The notes beneath the pieces were generated by a model, which saw only the letters and a program-made list of their open reading frames with translations, was not told the origin of the DNA and did no database searches. A stretch of 64,000 nt of DNA. It comes from Candidatus Cloacimonadales bacterium. GTDB taxonomy: Bacteria > Cloacimonadota > Cloacimonadia > Cloacimonadales > JAFGVF01. Positions 2,630 through 60,610 of this stretch are shown here, in pieces; within the stretch, counting starts at the first letter, position 1; each line of letters opens with the position of its first letter. Both the position numbers and the translations under genes were made by a program. The stretch lies in NCBI GenBank assembly GCA_963677495.2, contig CAXXOU010000004.1, positions 832,001 to 896,000 of the forward strand, given 5' to 3'.

Positions 2630-2708
<79 letters not shown>

Positions 2709-2732
2709 GATATAGAGTGAATTGTAAAAGAT

Positions 2733-2808
2733 GGGCGTTTAGCTCAGTTGGGAGAGCGCCTGCCTTACAAGCAGGTGGTCGGGGGTTCAAGTCCCTCAGC
2801 GCCCACCA
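2733..2808 (+). tRNA. tRNA-Val (TAC)
   Basis: GGGCGTT/AGCGCCC acceptor, CCTGC-CT-TAC-AA-GCAGG anticodon arm, GGTTCAAGTCC, CCA. Confidence 0.97.
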
Positions 2809-2824
2809 TCTTTTATTCCTATAA

Positions 2825-2900
2825 GGGCGTTTAGCTCAGTTGGGAGAGCGCCTGCCTTACAAGCAGGTGGTCGGGGGTTCAAGTCCCTCAGCGCCCACCA
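2825..2900 (+). tRNA. tRNA-Val (TAC), identical tandem copy
   Basis: Same sequence as 2733-2808. Confidence 0.97.
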
Positions 2901-2989: not shown

Positions 2990-3826
2990 AGGGATTTGCC
3001 TTCGCAAATCCGGTAACCCCGTTTGTCATCCTGAACGGAATGAGGATACGAATGAAGCTGAAGGACCTCTCCGATAACTTTAGTCTCCCAACTAAAGAAA
3101 AGCTCTTTTCCGAAGGAAAACAGTGAAAAGATTTGCAGACTAAGCTCGAGTCCATACGACCATCGGGAGTTCGACTCCAAGCGAAATAACACCATTAAAT
3201 AAGTTTATATTGCCATTATCGCTTGGCGTCGTGTTCGTATCTCACATGGACGCGAGCTTAGAATTCATTCACTTCATTCACTACGCTCAGGGTGGCATAC
3301 ACAGTGCGATTTGCAACAACTTACGGCATTTCAGGGAGTTTGTCGGCCTGATAAGGCAACGGACTTCCTAAAATGCACTTCGAAGTGGCATATTCCTGAT
3401 TTCGTTCTCGCGTCACGCTATCGCTGCAACGCAAGTCCGAGGTTGTGTGACATGACAAACCGACACAGTCGGTTAAGTCCATATATGGACTGCATCAACT
3501 GTGTAGATGCAACTGCAAGATGACCCAGGAAGAAGTGATTCGCAAAGAAGTGGGAATCGCTAATTCCGGTACGCGATGTCTGATTTGTTCTCGCATCAAG
3601 CTATCGCTACAACGCAAGTCCGAGTTAATTCCTTCGAAGTACAACCATTCGCAAGGTCATTCGACCATTCCGAAGGTTTTCGGTAGTTGTCACCTGTCCG
3701 TGACTGTCCTTGTATGTCCTTGCAAGTCTGTGCTTGTGCCTATTGTGCAAGTCAATTCGTTCTCGCCCCACACTTCGTTGCGGCCTGTCGGGGCGTAGCT
3801 TTCAAGCGAAGACTGATGCAAGTCCA
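2990..3826. repeat. Mosaic of multi-copy palindromic (REP/MITE-like) modules, locus 1
   Basis: Segments recur elsewhere: 2990-3110 ~ 31067-31183; 3143-3183 ~ 8619-8659; 3297-3440 ~ 60466-60610 (reverse complement) and 31541-31680; 3455-3483 ~ 50244-50272; 3756-3783 = 31644-31671. Confidence 0.85.
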
Positions 3827-3871: not shown

Positions 3872-3987
3872 TTCTGTTTTCGGGGCTGGGTGAAATTCCC
3901 GACCGGTGGTACAGTCCACGAGCCGAAAAGGTTGAATTGGTGAAATTCCAATACCGACAGTTAAAGTCTGGAGGAGAGAAAACAGTT
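3872..3987 (+). promoter_or_regulatory. FMN riboswitch (RFN element)
   Basis: CTGTTTTC...GGGTGAAATTCCCGACCGGTGGT...AGTCCACGAG...GGTGAAATTCCAATACCGACAGTTAAAGTCTGGA..GAGAGAAAACAG directly upstream of the rib operon; TTGACA at 3836; weak hairpin plus T-tract at ~4001-4025. Confidence 0.95.
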
Positions 3988-8283: not shown

Positions 8284-9118
8284 CGCTCTGAAAGAGTGAT
8301 TGTTTAATAGCCCCATGCGTGAGCTTGAGGTTGAAATTCGTTATAATGATTAGCCCTGTAGGGGCGTAAGAACTATTTGTTTGTGATATTACGCACCTAT
8401 ATAGTTAATTCTGCTCCCATGCATCTCTCTACTCTCAGCAGTAATCAGTGATTTCAAACTGACTTTAACTTGGTGATAGGTTGGTTAATTCTTAGCAATT
8501 AGGCCAGGAATAGGCCAAGTGTTTGCCAAGGGTTTACCAAGTGTTTCGCAGGAATTACTGCCGAGATATAAAGGAGATAAAAGAGAAGATGTAATTCTTG
8601 GGTTGGCAAGTTGTCATTAGCTCGAGTCCATTCGATTGAAAGGAGTTCGACTCTATGCGTTCTTTACAGCTTTCGCTTTGCATATGGCTATTTGAACTTA
8701 TACCTCTTCGAGGTTGCATATGTAACAACGTACTGCGACTCTCCTGAGTTGCTGTGACGACGAAGTCGGCAAATTCCACTGACGGGAGATAAATATATAA
8801 TAGTTAACCGGGAGGATTCCAGATTTCCAGTTGACTTCCGGCAAAGTATTTGTTCCGTAGGGGCACAACAACTTGTGCCCTATTTAGCTGTTTATGTTTC
8901 TGGATAAATCCATATCTAAACGTATGTTGTGGATACACCTTAGGGCTTAAGTTGTTAAGCCCCTACAAAAATACTTATAACTCTTCAAGCTATGTGCAAG
9001 TGAGGACACTCGCACTACGTTTTAGCCCTATATGGGCTGAATATGAATAGCCCCGGGTTTTGTGAACCCGGGGTCAAGTACACCCAAAAGACCTTTCGAA
9101 CCCTGAAGGGGTTCAACA
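8284..9118. repeat. Mosaic of palindromic modules, locus 2 (includes a GTAG-REP doublet and an 11-bp phased array)
   Basis: 8284-8400 resembles 9024-9118 in layout; 8469-8552 phased CTTGG/CCAAG; 8730-8783 ~ 31926-31979; 8857-8966 inverted REP pair; 8988-9021 ~ 32060-32093. Confidence 0.8.
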
Positions 9119-12314: not shown

Positions 12315-12392
12315 CACTCAAATCTCTAATTGAGCAGTATTTTTCTACTTTGTACTCATGCTGTCTTTTCTACCTTTCAGCAAACTATCTAT

Positions 12393-12819
12393 CAAAACGC
12401 AGTCATCCCACTGTTTTCCCACTGTGCACGCACTGTGCACCCAGTGAAACAGTGGGTTGGCAGTGCCTTCACAGTGCGTGCACAGTGCAAACACAGTGCG
12501 TTGATGGATAGTGCAGTAAAAGAGAGTAAAAAGGGAATAAAATGTAGCTAAGTTATTGGTAATGGCACTGCGTATGATATTCTGAAGCAGTCACCTGTAC
12601 GACTGAAAGGAGTTTGGGGAATTGCGACTTCGAAGTACACGAATATAACTGATACGCATTTCCCCAAGCTCGAAAACTCGCACTGGTGACTGCTCCTGTT
12701 GTGGGGCGAGGATGAAAACTTATCAAAAGAGGTATAGTAGTGTATTTTAGGAAGTCCGTTGCCCTATCAGGCCGACAAACTCCCTGAAATGCGGTAAGTT
12801 ATTGCGAAATGCAAAGTAT
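12393..12819. repeat. Composite repeat, locus 3 (CASTG phased array + long hairpin element + conserved B module)
   Basis: 12393-12575 nearly identical to 60276-60458 and to the reverse complement of 31690-31872; 12583-12698 ~ reverse complement of 31424-31532; 12745-12805 ~ reverse complement of 3312-3375. Confidence 0.9.
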
Positions 12820-20078: not shown

Positions 20079-20250
20079 TTACATTCCTTATCTAGTATTG
20101 TAGGAATGATTCAGCATTAAGTTGTTGAGTCAAGAAATATCCTTAAAGGAGTTCTTCAGAGTGAAACTTGTGAGTGAAAAAGGACTTCTTGGAAATTAAT
20201 TAATATCACTAGCAAATCGAAGAACTGGCAATAATTCAAGAGACATCTTA

Positions 20251-20335
20251 CCACGGATTGACCACAGGTAAACTACGCCTAAACCAAGGGAGCCGTGGTC
20301 AACCCTTGGTCAATCCGTGGTTTACCCGTGGTCAA
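20251..20335. repeat. 11-bp phased inverted CCACGG/CCGTGG array
   Basis: Motifs at 20251, 20262, 20273, 20284 | 20293, 20304, 20315, 20326; homologous to 41504-41585. Confidence 0.85.
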
Positions 20336-30995: not shown

Positions 30996-32690
30996 GGAGT
31001 TTGTCAGTCTGTCCGACGATATTCATTTCGTTTCACTTCATTCGGCTTGGCAGTGTGACAATGGTCAGGGATTTGCATTCGCAAATCCGAGAACCATTCT
31101 GTCATCCCGATTGAGTGAGGATACGAACGAGTAGAGGGACCTCTCCGATAGCTTTAGTCTCCCCGCTAAAGAAGAGCTTATTTGCCTTCCGAAAGTTGCT
31201 CAAAAAAAATACAAACCACGAAAAGCACAAAAAGCACGAAAGGGGGATTAGCTTCATTATTTTTCGTGTATTTAGTGCTTTTCGTGGTTAGATATAAAAC
31301 AAAAATTTGAATACCTTAAAGATACGTCAATACCTCAAATGTTAACCCACTAAAGCCATCCGAGCGCCCCATCGACTCCGTTCATTTCGTTTCACTTCAT
31401 TCACTCCGCTCAGGGTGACATGTCAGGAGCAGTCACCAGTGCGAGTTTACGAGCTTGGGGAAATGCGGAAAAGATATGTTCTCCGGTACGCATTTCCCCG
31501 AACTCCCGATGGTCGTAATGGTGACTGCTTCAAAATACATGCACAGTGCGTTTTGCAATGACTTACCGAATTTCAGGGAGTTTGTCTGCCTGATAAGGCA
31601 ACGGACTTCCTAAAATGCACTTCGAAGTCACTTTCCCTAACTTTTCGTTCTCGCCCCACACTTCGTTGCGGAGCAAGTCCAAAAGAGATATACACAGTGC
31701 CTTTTGCAATCACTTAGCTACATTTCATGCCCTTTTCACTCCCTTTCACTGCTCTATCCATCAACGCACTGCATCTGCACTGTGCACGCACTGTGAAGGC
31801 ACTGCCAACCCACTGTTTCACTGGGTGCACAGTGCGTGCACAGTGGGAAAACAGTGGGATAACTGCGTTTTGGTGGATGGTTTAGTTCAATAGAGCATCA
31901 GTATCGAAGATACATGAATGACAATGTACTGCGATTCTCCTGAATTGCTGTGGCGACGAAGTCGGCAGTTACCACTGACTGTAATTTGGTTTTAAAACGC
32001 TAAAATGTGTCTCAATTGCTTTGCAAACACGATTGGTTTCCCGAAGATAGCTCTAAGCGAGCTATGTGCAAGTGGGGACACTTGCACTACGTTACACGCT
32101 CCCATTCAATAAAGCTATGACAAAGATTACATAGTTATCCACAACTTGTGACTAACTTACTGCTTTGAGTAAGAGAGAAGTAAGAGTCCAGTAAGTGTGA
32201 AGTAAGAGATAAGTAAGAATTGAATGGGGGTAATCGAAGGGACATAGCATGCTATAATCTATTGAGTAATTAAAATATACCGGATTTCTCATTTTGAATC
32301 ATACATTTTTCATCTTGCATTTAATCCCGATTCTCCCACGAGTAATAAAGACATGAAGATAATATCCATCCCATATCCAACTAATAAGATTCCTATATGT
32401 TCATATAGTTTTCATATAAGAGTCATATAGGGATCATATAGGAATTATGCAGTTGTTGCTCCAGTGCCTAACGTGGGAGAAGGGGGATAAATCGAGCATT
32501 AAACTATAAAATATAATAAGAAAAATGGTTAACGGATGCTCCCCAGAACCACCAGATTCATCTGGTGGCTGAATGCACTAACACACACTATCTTAACCCC
32601 ACTCTCCCGATTCTGCAGGAATCGGGAGGGTGGGGAGTTTGGGTGTAATCTCCTGCCCCTATTTGAAAAAAGGGGTTCTGGGGAAGCTAA
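30996..32690. repeat. Longest mosaic of palindromic modules, locus 5
   Basis: Contains copies of modules found at loci 1, 2, 3 and 8, a 9-bp CACGA inverted array (31214-31289), 11-bp arrays (31767-31856, 32134-32217, 32361-32440) and hairpins at 32550-32690. Confidence 0.85.
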
Positions 32691-32968
32691 TTAATGATTA
32701 TGTATTATCTTCTGGTGTTGTAACAAGATTATGATTGACATGATAAAAATAGATATTCAAATCAGTTATCGCTTGGAAAAGAGGTGTATAATCTCGAGCT
32801 CTTGAACATCGTGCAACATGTTGTACTGTCTCAATCCATGAGTTGAATGGGATCGTGATTGAACCTATGGATGTTTCTCGCAATTAAATTTTTTATAGAA
32901 TCCTTGTTATTATTCATTGACATGCATTATACTGAATATTTTTATTGAAAAAAATATTGGAGATAAAA

Positions 32969-33991
32969 ATGAATAGGAATACTTTAAGTCTTTATCCTAT
33001 CGATTTCCCATTTGAAACACTTGTATCTAGAATTGAAGCAAATCCTCCCAAACTTATATTGGATCCAGATTTTCAAAGAAAATACAAATGGGATAATGAT
33101 GGTTTCGAGAGATCAAGTAAGTTTATTGAATCTTGCTTAATGAGAATTCCATTACCTGCTTGTTATTTTGCAGAAAATGAAGAAAGCAATCATTTAGTTA
33201 TTGATGGGGTTCAGAGATTAACAACAATTCAAAGATTCTTTAATGATGAATTTGCATTAGAAGGTCTAACTTTCTATAATCATTTAAATGGCATGAAATT
33301 TTCAGAGCTTGGAGATTTAAAAAATGAGCTAGAGACAACTACAATTCGCTGTGTTGTCTTGAGAAAAGAGAATGACAAAGCCTTGATTAGAGAGATTTTC
33401 GCCAGATTGAATCAAGGAACAGTTAAATTATCAGATCAAGAAATTAGACATGCAATATACTCAGGTCCTTTTGATGAATTACTCACAGATATTGCATCAC
33501 ACACTTTTATACAAGCATTTAGAAATAATGATCAAAAAGAAGACAGGTCTGATGAGGAGCTTGTACTAAGATTCTTTGCTTTAGAATCAGATCTTGAATC
33601 ATATGATGGGAAACTATCAAAGTTGCTTGATGATTTTATGCAGGACCATCAAGACATAAGTAGGGAGGATGCACAAGAACTAGCAAATAAGTTCAAAACA
33701 ACCCTAAATAAATGTATGAGGACATTTGATGAACCCTTTACAAATGCAAATTTAGAAAAGAATAAGCGAAAAGGTGTTGTATACTATGATCTACTTATGT
33801 GGAGCTTTAGCAAGTTACCTGATGAGATAATTGACTCTAATAAAAATGAAATAATTACTGCATATTCTAACTTATGTGAAAATGGCGACTTTCAAAAAAA
33901 CATGCTAGGAGGATTACAAAAAAAATCTTCTATCATTAAAAGAAGAAAGTTATGGACTGCTGAGTTAAGGGGGGTTGGAATTGAAATCTAA
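32969..33991 (+). CDS. DUF262 (ParB/Srx-like, GmrS-like) domain protein
   Basis: PDFQRKYKW, FIES.LMRIPLP, VIDGVQRLTT, IFARLNQG..LS.QEIR motifs; ATG 32969 behind GGAG. Confidence 0.88.
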   Translation: MNRNTLSLYPIDFPFETLVSRIEANPPKLILDPDFQRKYKWDNDGFERSSKFIESCLMRIPLPACYFAENEESNHLVIDGVQRLTTIQRFFNDEFALEGLTFYNHLNGMKFSELGDLKNELETTTIRCVVLRKENDKALIREIFARLNQGTVKLSDQEIRHAIYSGPFDELLTDIASHTFIQAFRNNDQKEDRSDEELVLRFFALESDLESYDGKLSKLLDDFMQDHQDISREDAQELANKFKTTLNKCMRTFDEPFTNANLEKNKRKGVVYYDLLMWSFSKLPDEIIDSNKNEIITAYSNLCENGDFQKNMLGGLQKKSSIIKRRKLWTAELRGVGIEI

Positions 33992-34601
33992 CTCACTAGT
34001 AAAACTTGAGATTAAAATTGATCATTTGGCCAGTAAGATAAGTGATTTTGAACATTTACTCCTTGAACCGAATCCTAACACTTTTATAATAGAAAATGCG
34101 AATTTTTTGACTAGATCGTTTTTGATCAGTCTTTGTGGATATTTGGAAGTATATCTTAAAGACATTATTGAGGAATATCTTGTAAAAGTTAATGATCTTG
34201 TTTCGAGTATTAAAGTTCCAATCAATTTGATTCGTTGGTCCATTGAGAATAAACCAAAGGCAAACTCAAAGATGAACTCATTACTTGATCCTAAAAAAAC
34301 TAAGTTTGAAGATTTACAGTTAAGAATAACTAAGAACGATTTAGACCAATTCATATCTGGAAATCCTTTCAGAACTAAAGATCTTCTCATTATGTTTGGA
34401 ATTGATTTAGAATCATATGATTTTTTTTCAAATATGAAAGTTCAGATTAACTCCTTTGTATTCACAAGAAACAATATTCTACACTATGATGATGATGCTT
34501 CCAGTTTGACAACTGGTGATATAATGGAAGCAAGTTCATTGTTTCTTAATTATGCCTTACAAATAGATGATCTGATAACAAATAAGATAAATCAAGTCTA
34601 G
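33975..34601 (+). CDS. HEPN-domain protein (MAE_28990/RiboL-PSP-HEPN-like), putative RNase
   Basis: N-terminal 'LISLCGYLE.Y' helix and RNNILH (Rx4H) motif; overlaps the DUF262 gene. Confidence 0.7.
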   Translation: MELKSNSLVKLEIKIDHLASKISDFEHLLLEPNPNTFIIENANFLTRSFLISLCGYLEVYLKDIIEEYLVKVNDLVSSIKVPINLIRWSIENKPKANSKMNSLLDPKKTKFEDLQLRITKNDLDQFISGNPFRTKDLLIMFGIDLESYDFFSNMKVQINSFVFTRNNILHYDDDASSLTTGDIMEASSLFLNYALQIDDLITNKINQV

Positions 34602-41503: not shown

Positions 41504-41585
41504 CCACGCATATACCATGGATAAACCACGGGTAAACGGCGGGAGCCGTGGTTAACCCGTGGTTTATCCGTCGTCAACCCGTTGT
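41504..41585. repeat. 11-bp phased inverted CCACGG/CCGTGG array, second copy
   Basis: Motifs at 41504, 41515, 41526, 41537 | 41546, 41557, 41568, 41579; shares the GGGAGCCGTGG centre with 20251-20335. Confidence 0.85.
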
Positions 41586-49932: not shown

Positions 49933-49994
49933 AATACTTAAAACTAATTTATTATTAAGCTCTAATCGATGCTTCATTAGTCTTTCATAATTCA

Positions 49995-50272
49995 CGGGAC
50001 ACACTCGGGACTTTTCCCGAGAAATTCCCTTGTAAGTCGCATAAAACTCCCAAATAATCCCCGCGAGTTGTGATAGGTTAGTGAAAGTGTGGATTGCATC
50101 AGCTGCGAAGATACACCAGCCACTCGACCGCTTTATGGAGTTTGTCAGATATGAAGCTTGCGGAGCGGGAACGGACTTCATCAAAAGCACACAGCATAAC
50201 CTACATCAATACGGGTTTTGTGCTAATTCAGAAAGTGCCACATACAAACCGACTCAGTCGGTTAAATCCATA
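49995..50272. repeat. Mosaic of palindromic modules, locus 7
   Basis: Phased CGGGA/TCCCG array 49995-50063; 50091-50130 ~ 3487-3525; 50137-50190 ~ 3335-3378; 50244-50272 ~ 3455-3483. Confidence 0.75.
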
Positions 50273-60105: not shown

Positions 60106-60275
60106 AATACCTCCAAAAGTATTGCATTGCCTGATAGTTTATGGTGATAGAGAGATTAGGATTAATCTAGCTATCAGCATAAACATCTACATTATTGATA
60201 TGTAAATCTAGCGTGTCAAGGATTTAGTTTTTTACACCTTGGTCTTTTAAAGTATTCTCTTATTGTACTATTCAA

Positions 60276-60610
60276 CAAAACGCAGTCATCCCACTGTTTT
60301 CCCACTGTGCACGCACTGTGCACCCAGTGAAACAGTGGGTTGGTAGTGCCTTCACAGTGCGTACACAGTGCAAACGCAGTGCGTTGATGGATAGAGCAGT
60401 AAAAGAGAGTAAAAAGGGCAATAAATATAGCTAAGTCATTGCAAATCGCACTGTGTATGTCTATTTCGGACTTGCGTTGCAGCGATAGCGTGACGCGAGA
60501 ACGAAATCAGGGATATGCTACATCGGAGTGCATTTTAGGAAGTCCGTTTGCCTTATCAGGCTGACAAACTCCCTGAAATGCGGTAAGTCATTGCAAATCG
60601 CACTGCGTAT
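60276..60610. repeat. Composite repeat, locus 8 (CASTG phased array + B module between 27-nt direct repeats)
   Basis: Near-identical to 12393-12575 and to the reverse complements of 31541-31872 and 3297-3440; direct repeats at 60432-60458 and 60584-60610. Confidence 0.9.

Follow-up and report, generated by a model that had tools for sequence, protein, structure and literature searches.

The intergenic tract at 31.0-32.7 kb belongs to a window of 64,000 nucleotides (G000:C4:832001-896000) in a Cloacimonadales genome of 3.41 Mb (G000; four contigs, 37% GC), and is flanked by divergent mutase genes on one side and a GmrSD+HEPN pair on the other. One encoded protein has a homologue named from Ca. 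Zophobacter franzmannii, and the closest Atlas clusters are mostly those of Cloacimonadota. It is a mosaic of small repeats and one of several in the window (Table 1), with modules of a de novo library covering 1,111 of its 1,695 bases. The ORF at 31615-31893 has no Pfam match and is built of repeats, and was rejected as a gene. An Rfam search of the window returned tRNAs and an FMN riboswitch only, so these tracts, hereafter called pads, match no known RNA family. As the first-pass annotation had stated, no transposase or integrase is present among the 48 window ORFs scanned for families. The GmrSD-N and RiboL-PSP-HEPN genes immediately after the pad (window 32945-34601) resemble a defence cassette at a repeat-rich synteny break, and have no orthologue in the sample of G001, one of the sister species G001-G003. 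Elsewhere in the window, the locus-1 mosaic is bracketed by three tRNA genes (two of them identical and in tandem) and the FMN riboswitch (window 2630-2897, 3872-3987).

Table 1. Repeat features of the 31.0-32.7 kb spacer and of other loci in the window (window coordinates).
Feature	Position	Strand	Remarks
J-type fragment + module A	31022..31184	+	Resembles Ssn-related/CGTC-type hairpin repeats; NTS motif in the available part of PMC11893778
Inverted repeat pair	31209..31292	.	Resembles the pair 3' of the single GxxExxY gene C4:902418 (match by eye)
Module J, A superfamily	31347..31421	+	Adjoins D or B at fixed register
Module D, inverted doublet	31424..31535	-	Both ends of Y1 locus C3:76538-77188, with ~22 nt in place of the gene
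Module B	31538..31628	+	27-nt word R + long imperfect hairpin
R8-family unit (M17)	31648..31682	-	Related to repeats flanking Y1 genes C1:229000 and C2:350415
Module C, 196 bp	31689..31882	-	Nine CA[CG]TG words 11 bp apart (one 8-bp step), word R at end
H + linker + GTAG hairpin	31925..32091	-	Copy of the unit that recurs around Y1 gene C4:1452082-1452666
DnaA-box-like hairpin + 11-bp AGTAAG array	32096..32233	+	Word array shared with the region upstream of 150-aa gene C4:58745
11-bp CATAT array (a113)	32324..32490	.	Paired with the 150-aa clade of C4:58745
Three-hairpin unit	32536..32686	+	Repeated around subclass-1.2 Y1 gene C4:22109-22561
Locus 1 mosaic	2990..3825	+	A, G, J, B+R8, F-I, R8, R5, R8 unit split by G39
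G39, 33 bp	3784..3816	-	Inserted without duplication inside R8 (M17) unit
Locus 2 mosaic	8285..9113	+	Subclass-1.2 hairpins, a23 array, G, H, GTAGGGGC pair, GTAG hairpin
C + D variant + B (reverse)	12383..12815	+	
a48 array, then I-linker-F unit with ~65-nt hairpin in linker	49989..50272	+	
C + R8 + B (reverse)	60267..60605	+	Composite occurring about 15 times

Pieces with zero mismatches, at ~20x, cover most of the 31-32.7 kb locus; they come from contigs of four runs that represent at most one sample, possibly the source. Exact cover is absent at the B/C joint (about 31684-31747) and at 32100-32131, and no piece spans the whole locus. One sample only holds this locus, with no RNA data set listed as carrying it, and no transposition, excision or empty allele was seen. 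The two short stretches and the missing spanning piece would suit an assembly chimera, which together with one decayed IS or a segmental duplication had been named in the first-pass annotation as fatal to its reading. Such an origin is scarcely credible, as the families have copies throughout the genome in 881 adjacency types, the same families occur in G001-G003, and the exact pieces extend across most of the locus.

Intergenic gaps in this genome are piled with small non-coding repeats of more than 30 families, and many of these families are also found on the flanks of a single-copy partner gene of their own. Chance is excluded as the source of the repeats, since 3,888 16-mers occur at least five times in intergenic DNA against none in one third-order Markov simulation. 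All of the modules named in the first-pass annotation proved to be dispersed families and not window-only, with 5-67 near-full copies in the genome (at least 60% of the query covered: A 19, B 40, C 65, D 18, F 38, G 5, H 66, I 30, GTAG hairpin 67). The module pairs that it listed do align (identical bases/length of the first copy: A 97/121; B 119/144, 135/144 and 97/140; D 93/109; F 27/29; G 32/41; H 48/54; I 28/39; GTAG hairpin 32/34), and module C has three copies in the window. Some of its divisions have to be redrawn: the proposed B variant at 50137-50190 reaches only 35/54 identity and is a member of a related hairpin family, H belongs with the GTAG hairpin in a single ~165-bp unit, and F and I together make up a tandem unit. 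What was read as I-B-F at 50 kb is this tandem unit in its other register, with a hairpin lying in the linker, an arrangement that occurs twice, there and at C4:1478087, one copy also having G39 inside I. The D hairpin has a z of -6.1.

The de novo library of 170 modules, with 12 rRNA-derived ones dropped, gave 2,917 genome matches covering 130 kb, and its modules were grouped by hand into 37 families. Of all 2,425 spacers, the one at 31-32.7 kb holds the most families, 11. The clumping proposed earlier was borne out, as 87 spacers hold at least five families against 17 expected from random placement in the 819 spacers of at least 150 bp, an excess that shrinks to 87 against 69 when occupied spacers alone count; 359 of the 819 are empty, against 152 expected. 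Module order is variable, as the first-pass annotation held, and the modules do not follow one fixed order.

Genes of every type that it suggested as partners are present outside the window and flanked by repeats: G000 holds 14 Y1_Tnp (PF01797) matches, 13 of them over the cut-off, one short GIY-YIG gene and one of 617 aa, one GxxExxY, two DUF559 and four intact four-helix-bundle genes. One repeat family lies on both sides within 200 bp of 13/14 Y1 genes, against 17/2,420 other genes (p=1e-25), a count for which families were grouped after the Y1 contexts had been seen; the module-level count without grouping is 11/14. The exception is the sole classic IS200, which is multi-copy in G001. The Y1 proteins are single-copy and at most 66% identical among themselves, and HUH and catalytic Tyr motifs are present in all 13 extracted (one read by eye). 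H with the GTAG hairpin, D, F/I (whose units surround Y1 gene C2:265272) and the 32.5-kb unit have one partner Y1 gene each, and terminal inverted repeats are shared with the autonomous element by module D only. The pairing recurs in G001-G003, same protein clade with same family, for H, F/I (two loci), Y10, Y81 (two loci), Y68 and R5, and three modules that have no partner in G000 (M97, M70, M47/74) flank Y1 genes in G001-G003.

Six Y1 proteins of 147-150 aa with Y---Q--HH are assigned by motif to subclass 1.2; the available part of PMC6006769 (Table 1) describes TnpA-Y1 proteins of this subclass as having Y---Q--HH, about 148 aa, low in copy, divergent and generally without partner repeat structures. 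The NCBIfam RAYT model scored one of the six class-2 proteins scanned above its cut-off of 80 bits, the others reaching 38-76 bits. A GTAG foot is present in the H unit and the GTAGGGGC pair; D, F/I, R8 and the 32.5-kb unit were not filed as classical REPs because a GTAG/GTGG foot was not seen in them by eye. The repeat-flanked partner genes elsewhere support the earlier proposal of many non-autonomous families; their mobilisation in trans is suggested by the gene-repeat pairing, and for B, A and the 11-bp arrays it is unsupported. No partner gene was found for B, K26 and A/J, which rank with the commonest families, either in G000 or at the loci examined in relatives. Pattern scans for a partner of B gave 0 matches in metagenome and genome collections (from which its own genome may be absent) and none was found at the Y1 loci of G001-G003, nor was a small GIY-YIG gene flanked by A found in 12 genomes of the family. 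Together, 13 divergent Y1-repeat pairs in one genome, a mapped gene-less derivative and fixed joints make a matched panel for the study of specificity and cleavage-site choice, and this panel takes in subclasses published without partners.

True nesting is seen for two elements, G39 and IS21. G39 is a 31-33-bp element whose ends were delimited in 21 of 24 copies. Its removal restores the module across the site in 18/21 copies (seven hosts; background 22%, p=1e-9), the sites have C[A/T] on the left in 21/21 and C on the right in 18/21, and target-site duplications are absent at the insertions; G39 is truly nested, by blunt insertion, inside other modules. Between the tmRNA end and a 79-aa GIY-YIG gene there is a stretch similar to G39, with a score equalled in 4/2,486 other upstream windows; the library HMM did not detect it. 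This juxtaposition suggests that the 79-aa gene likely serves G39, which would then be a very small substrate, with a predicted rule for target choice, on which to study a small GIY-YIG protein. At one locus of another genome (L133, G005) a small GIY-YIG gene lies between tRNA-like copies with an inserted hairpin. Meanwhile, 17 copies of an IS21 element, at least 99.7% identical, encode IstA/IstB and have TG-CA ends, 16 with 6-8-bp duplications; gene-masked DNA was searched for them first, and a later genome-wide motif scan gave the same 17. The copy at G000:C1:126465 is 2 bp longer and its istA frame is broken. IS21 lies inside a module in 11/17 cases and at most 30 bp from one in 16/17, where these classes make up 22% and 39% of intergenic DNA.

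The first-pass annotation inferred that the elements preferentially insert into each other. Nesting of G39 and IS21 agrees with this, but most neighbours are not nested, an automated search for split modules found one, and the data fit preferential insertion and survival in tolerated DNA alike. Two other loci were noted in passing: two IS110 genes with the same N-terminal sequence (L088, G000:C4:1492880 and 1497017) lie among R5/DUF41 repeats, possibly reflecting repeat targeting, and G000:C4:295810-301358, with 36-nt repeats and 30-nt spacers beside genes of 113, 224 and 1,057 aa, resembles a type II CRISPR locus.

Most of the non-nested joints are fixed-register abutments or tandem registers. 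Of 2,320 adjacencies, 1,237 belong to types seen at least five times and 1,119 of these lie within 3 nt of a fixed spacing, many simply connecting parts of one element. The end of C adjoins R8 (20+6), K26 (19) and D (8), each at its own register, and its left and right partners occur in many combinations. Word R, found both in B and at the end of C, joins several left partners to three right partners. C sequence tracks its partner weakly (0.141 against 0.147, p=0.054), there are no near-identical C pairs (minimum 4.6%), and a C subfamily linked to K26 is marked by one column in 10/15 against 2/30 copies, a borderline result after 1,068 tests. Mantel tests for co-amplification were underpowered and non-significant, and their internal control failed in subsets.

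The data are best accommodated if the pads are pile-ups of more than 30 families, many of which partner genes copy in trans, mainly as ssDNA hairpins via Y1/HUH enzymes, and this is the probable explanation. Each Y1 would recognise its own hairpin, and by cutting and rejoining at nearby sites it could build composites such as C-R8-B, which might then be copied as units, occasionally swapping partners at shared words such as R. By analogy with E. coli TnpA-REP, for which the available part of PMC8266576 describes cutting on the 5' or 3' side of the hairpin and then strand transfer, Y1 activity of this type would be the likeliest source of the joints, ahead of recombination at shared words. An unlikely rival to the scheme holds that each joint formed once and was then shuffled by ectopic recombination or gene conversion at such words, with little ongoing transposition. 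The several partners connected by word R, the weak tracking of partners by C, the want of near-identical C pairs and an excess of synteny breaks at repeat-bearing spacers (below) would all follow from it, but it leaves unexplained the intact family-specific Y1 genes, the blunt G39 insertions in seven hosts and the borderline K26-linked C subfamily. Recombination or gene conversion is probably a contributing process, and composites are probably copied as units with some exchange.

Another component of the pads is the 11-bp array. Period 11 dominates non-coding DNA, with 300 loci against 9-46 for periods 8-14, and the window holds arrays beyond those first listed (20248-20335, 41516-41585, 8459-8555 and 49989-50076; a13 twice, a23 and a48). 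The AGTAAG tract at 32160-32200 was considered as a four-helix-bundle repeat and rejected, its period being 11 and that of four-helix-bundle repeats 7. An exact DnaA box lies at window 32134-32142, inside a hairpin module that has 77 copies and adjoins 11-bp arrays of several kinds. A family of 150-aa proteins accompanies the arrays, with 22 near-full-length genes and two fragments in G000, matches in 21/30 relatives and 407 clusters at 50% identity. An array family lies upstream of 14/22 of these genes by reading, 13 by the library test and 15 by the de novo test. Within the set of repeat-bearing spacers, those upstream of 150-aa genes hold arrays no more often than the others (13/21 against 351/523), and raw array-gene co-location was discarded as evidence of pairing, being not significant once conditioned on such spacers. 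In G000-G001 orthologue pairs of array-bearing 150-aa genes the same array is kept in 5/5 (labels hand-assigned), against 2/18 and 2/43 at the flanks of other genes (G001 sample of 400 kb). Module C pairs with C4:1447755, lying upstream of this gene and of its G001 orthologue in opposite orientations relative to the gene, and the frame of the DnaA-box-like hairpin/AGTAAG unit recurs, with another word, upstream of the 150-aa gene C4:777579. A TATAxTAGAGG-like motif follows a ~22-bp direct repeat upstream of many 150-aa genes, also in distant relatives, and may be a promoter or an element end.

Array words are 99% conserved, and the nine C words carry 7 rare variants at 45 sites against 129 at 101 flank sites, about 8-fold fewer (59 of 64 copies kept). 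The 150-aa proteins have few invariant residues, which would fit binding better than catalysis, and a basic N-terminus is found in most array-linked members and not in the array-less clade (one clade, not independent). This family, which may be kin to DUF6266, a term absent from the literature searched, has no Pfam match at E<=0.001, scattered weak PHROG matches only, and weak HMG matches in 3/147 members (E 0.006-0.02). Foldseek searches of PDB and BFVD with two models (pLDDT 84 and 95) gave no match at E<=0.001, which is not proof of a new fold; VIA gave Z<=4.1 for both, and comparison with DUF6266, HMG-box and RHH DNA-binding proteins gave a best Z of 3.9 (rmsd 2.4, 49 aligned). The arrays probably serve as tracks to which their paired 150-aa proteins bind. 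This family could supply compact sequence-specific DNA binders, and candidate routes for array movement are machinery of their own or hitch-hiking on Y1 units. Alternatively, the arrays could be protein-binding platforms kept by the host for chromosome organisation or regulation, seeding pads beside which hairpin families pile up. The dominance of period 11, the conserved words and the basic N-terminus speak for such platforms, but array positions are not conserved (the 2/18 and 2/43 flanks above), and arrays are not needed to account for many of the pads or for most of the hairpin families. This account is somewhat less likely than shuffling by recombination.

A bolder version of the trans-copying scheme is put forward tentatively. 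Besides REPtrons, there may be two undescribed selfish systems: 150-aa clades, with a confident and unmatched fold model, each reading and propagating its own 11-bp-phased array, and a repeat parasite in which the 79-aa GIY-YIG protein inserts a 32-bp element bluntly at C[A/T]^C inside hairpins. Alongside these, Y1 enzymes of subclasses published without partners might splice units at fixed joints.

Comparison with sister species shows pads to persist as tolerant sites while their content changes. Of 26 cases in which a module adjoins an orthologue in G001, G000 also has a module in 18 and the same family in 3; in the same sample 55/102 long spacers carry repeats. The G001 spacer upstream of the mutase gene holds no module, and that of G002 a different, degraded set. 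Repeat-bearing spacers are synteny breaks in 51/55 cases against 28/47 for long repeat-free ones (p=9e-5, a comparison that counts neighbours absent from the sample), and pads also mark rearrangement points in the lineage; spacers with both neighbours conserved and modules present (6/167) are too few to compare. Sites are often reused, but their contents rarely match.

That elements aim at the pads is shown only indirectly. They might instead insert widely, without targeting, and survive only in a few neutral spacers at operon boundaries, leaving the pads as graveyards. All 17 recovered IS21 flank pairs are in intergenic DNA, site reuse is little higher than the proportion of long spacers that bear repeats, and repeat spacers are mostly synteny breaks, as this improbable alternative would predict; against it, G39 lies at a defined register inside other modules, the C end adjoins four partner modules at fixed spacings (20, 19, 8 and 6 times), and empty long spacers are in excess. 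Under copying in trans, the pads would keep accumulating elements because repeat-bearing operon boundaries are both tolerant and target-rich.

The closest known counterparts of the pads are REPtrons, in which, according to the available parts of PMC8266576, PMC6006769 and PMC3116915, a single-copy Y1/HUH gene is flanked by its own dispersed hairpin family, with several gene-repeat pairs per genome and tandem clusters at the gene. Unlike them, one genome here has 13 flanked genes, most repeats are without a GTAG foot, and a single tract mixes families whose partners are unrelated; and whereas no partners are listed for 1.2 and 2.1 in the available part of PMC6006769, six 1.2-type genes, as well as class-2 genes with NH[YF]H motifs, have them here. 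Module D recalls TIRtrons/TIRYTs (PMC3733652, available part), forming inverted ends around a Y1 gene and also a gene-less doublet, but it carries the divergent GGGGAAAT in place of the GGGGWSAS consensus and is fused at fixed register to unrelated units. Neisserial mosaics, dRS3/NTS and Ssn (PMC10745880 and PMC11893778, available parts) are likewise mosaics in intergenic DNA at which insertion and recombination take place; A starts with an NTS-like GTCATCCC, and a small GIY-YIG gene lies beside its repeat as in Ssn systems. Unlike there, no single bounding repeat is present, no Ssn-like gene flanked by A was found, and G39 inserts inside other repeats. With 11 unrelated families in one spacer and 881 adjacency types, the pads do not have the single bounding repeat and regular alternation of NIMEs and BIMEs. 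Compared with the IS21 family, nearly all copies here lie in or beside other repeats. The cyanobacterial small dispersed repeats, reportedly described by Elhai in 2008 as very small elements inserting into other repeats, are alike by description, and unlike them G39 has a candidate partner gene. In the literature searched, which fell short of most subscription papers, nothing relevant was found on G39-like elements or on IS21 in REPs, and no description for Cloacimonadota of the breadth of families, the 1.2 partners, G39 or the array-paired family. Overall, the pads work like REPtrons, TIRtrons and neisserial mosaics as these are described in the available parts of PMC3733652, PMC3116915, PMC10745880, PMC3184786 and PMC11893778, and differ from known systems in their breadth, their partner-bearing subclasses, G39 and an array-paired protein family.
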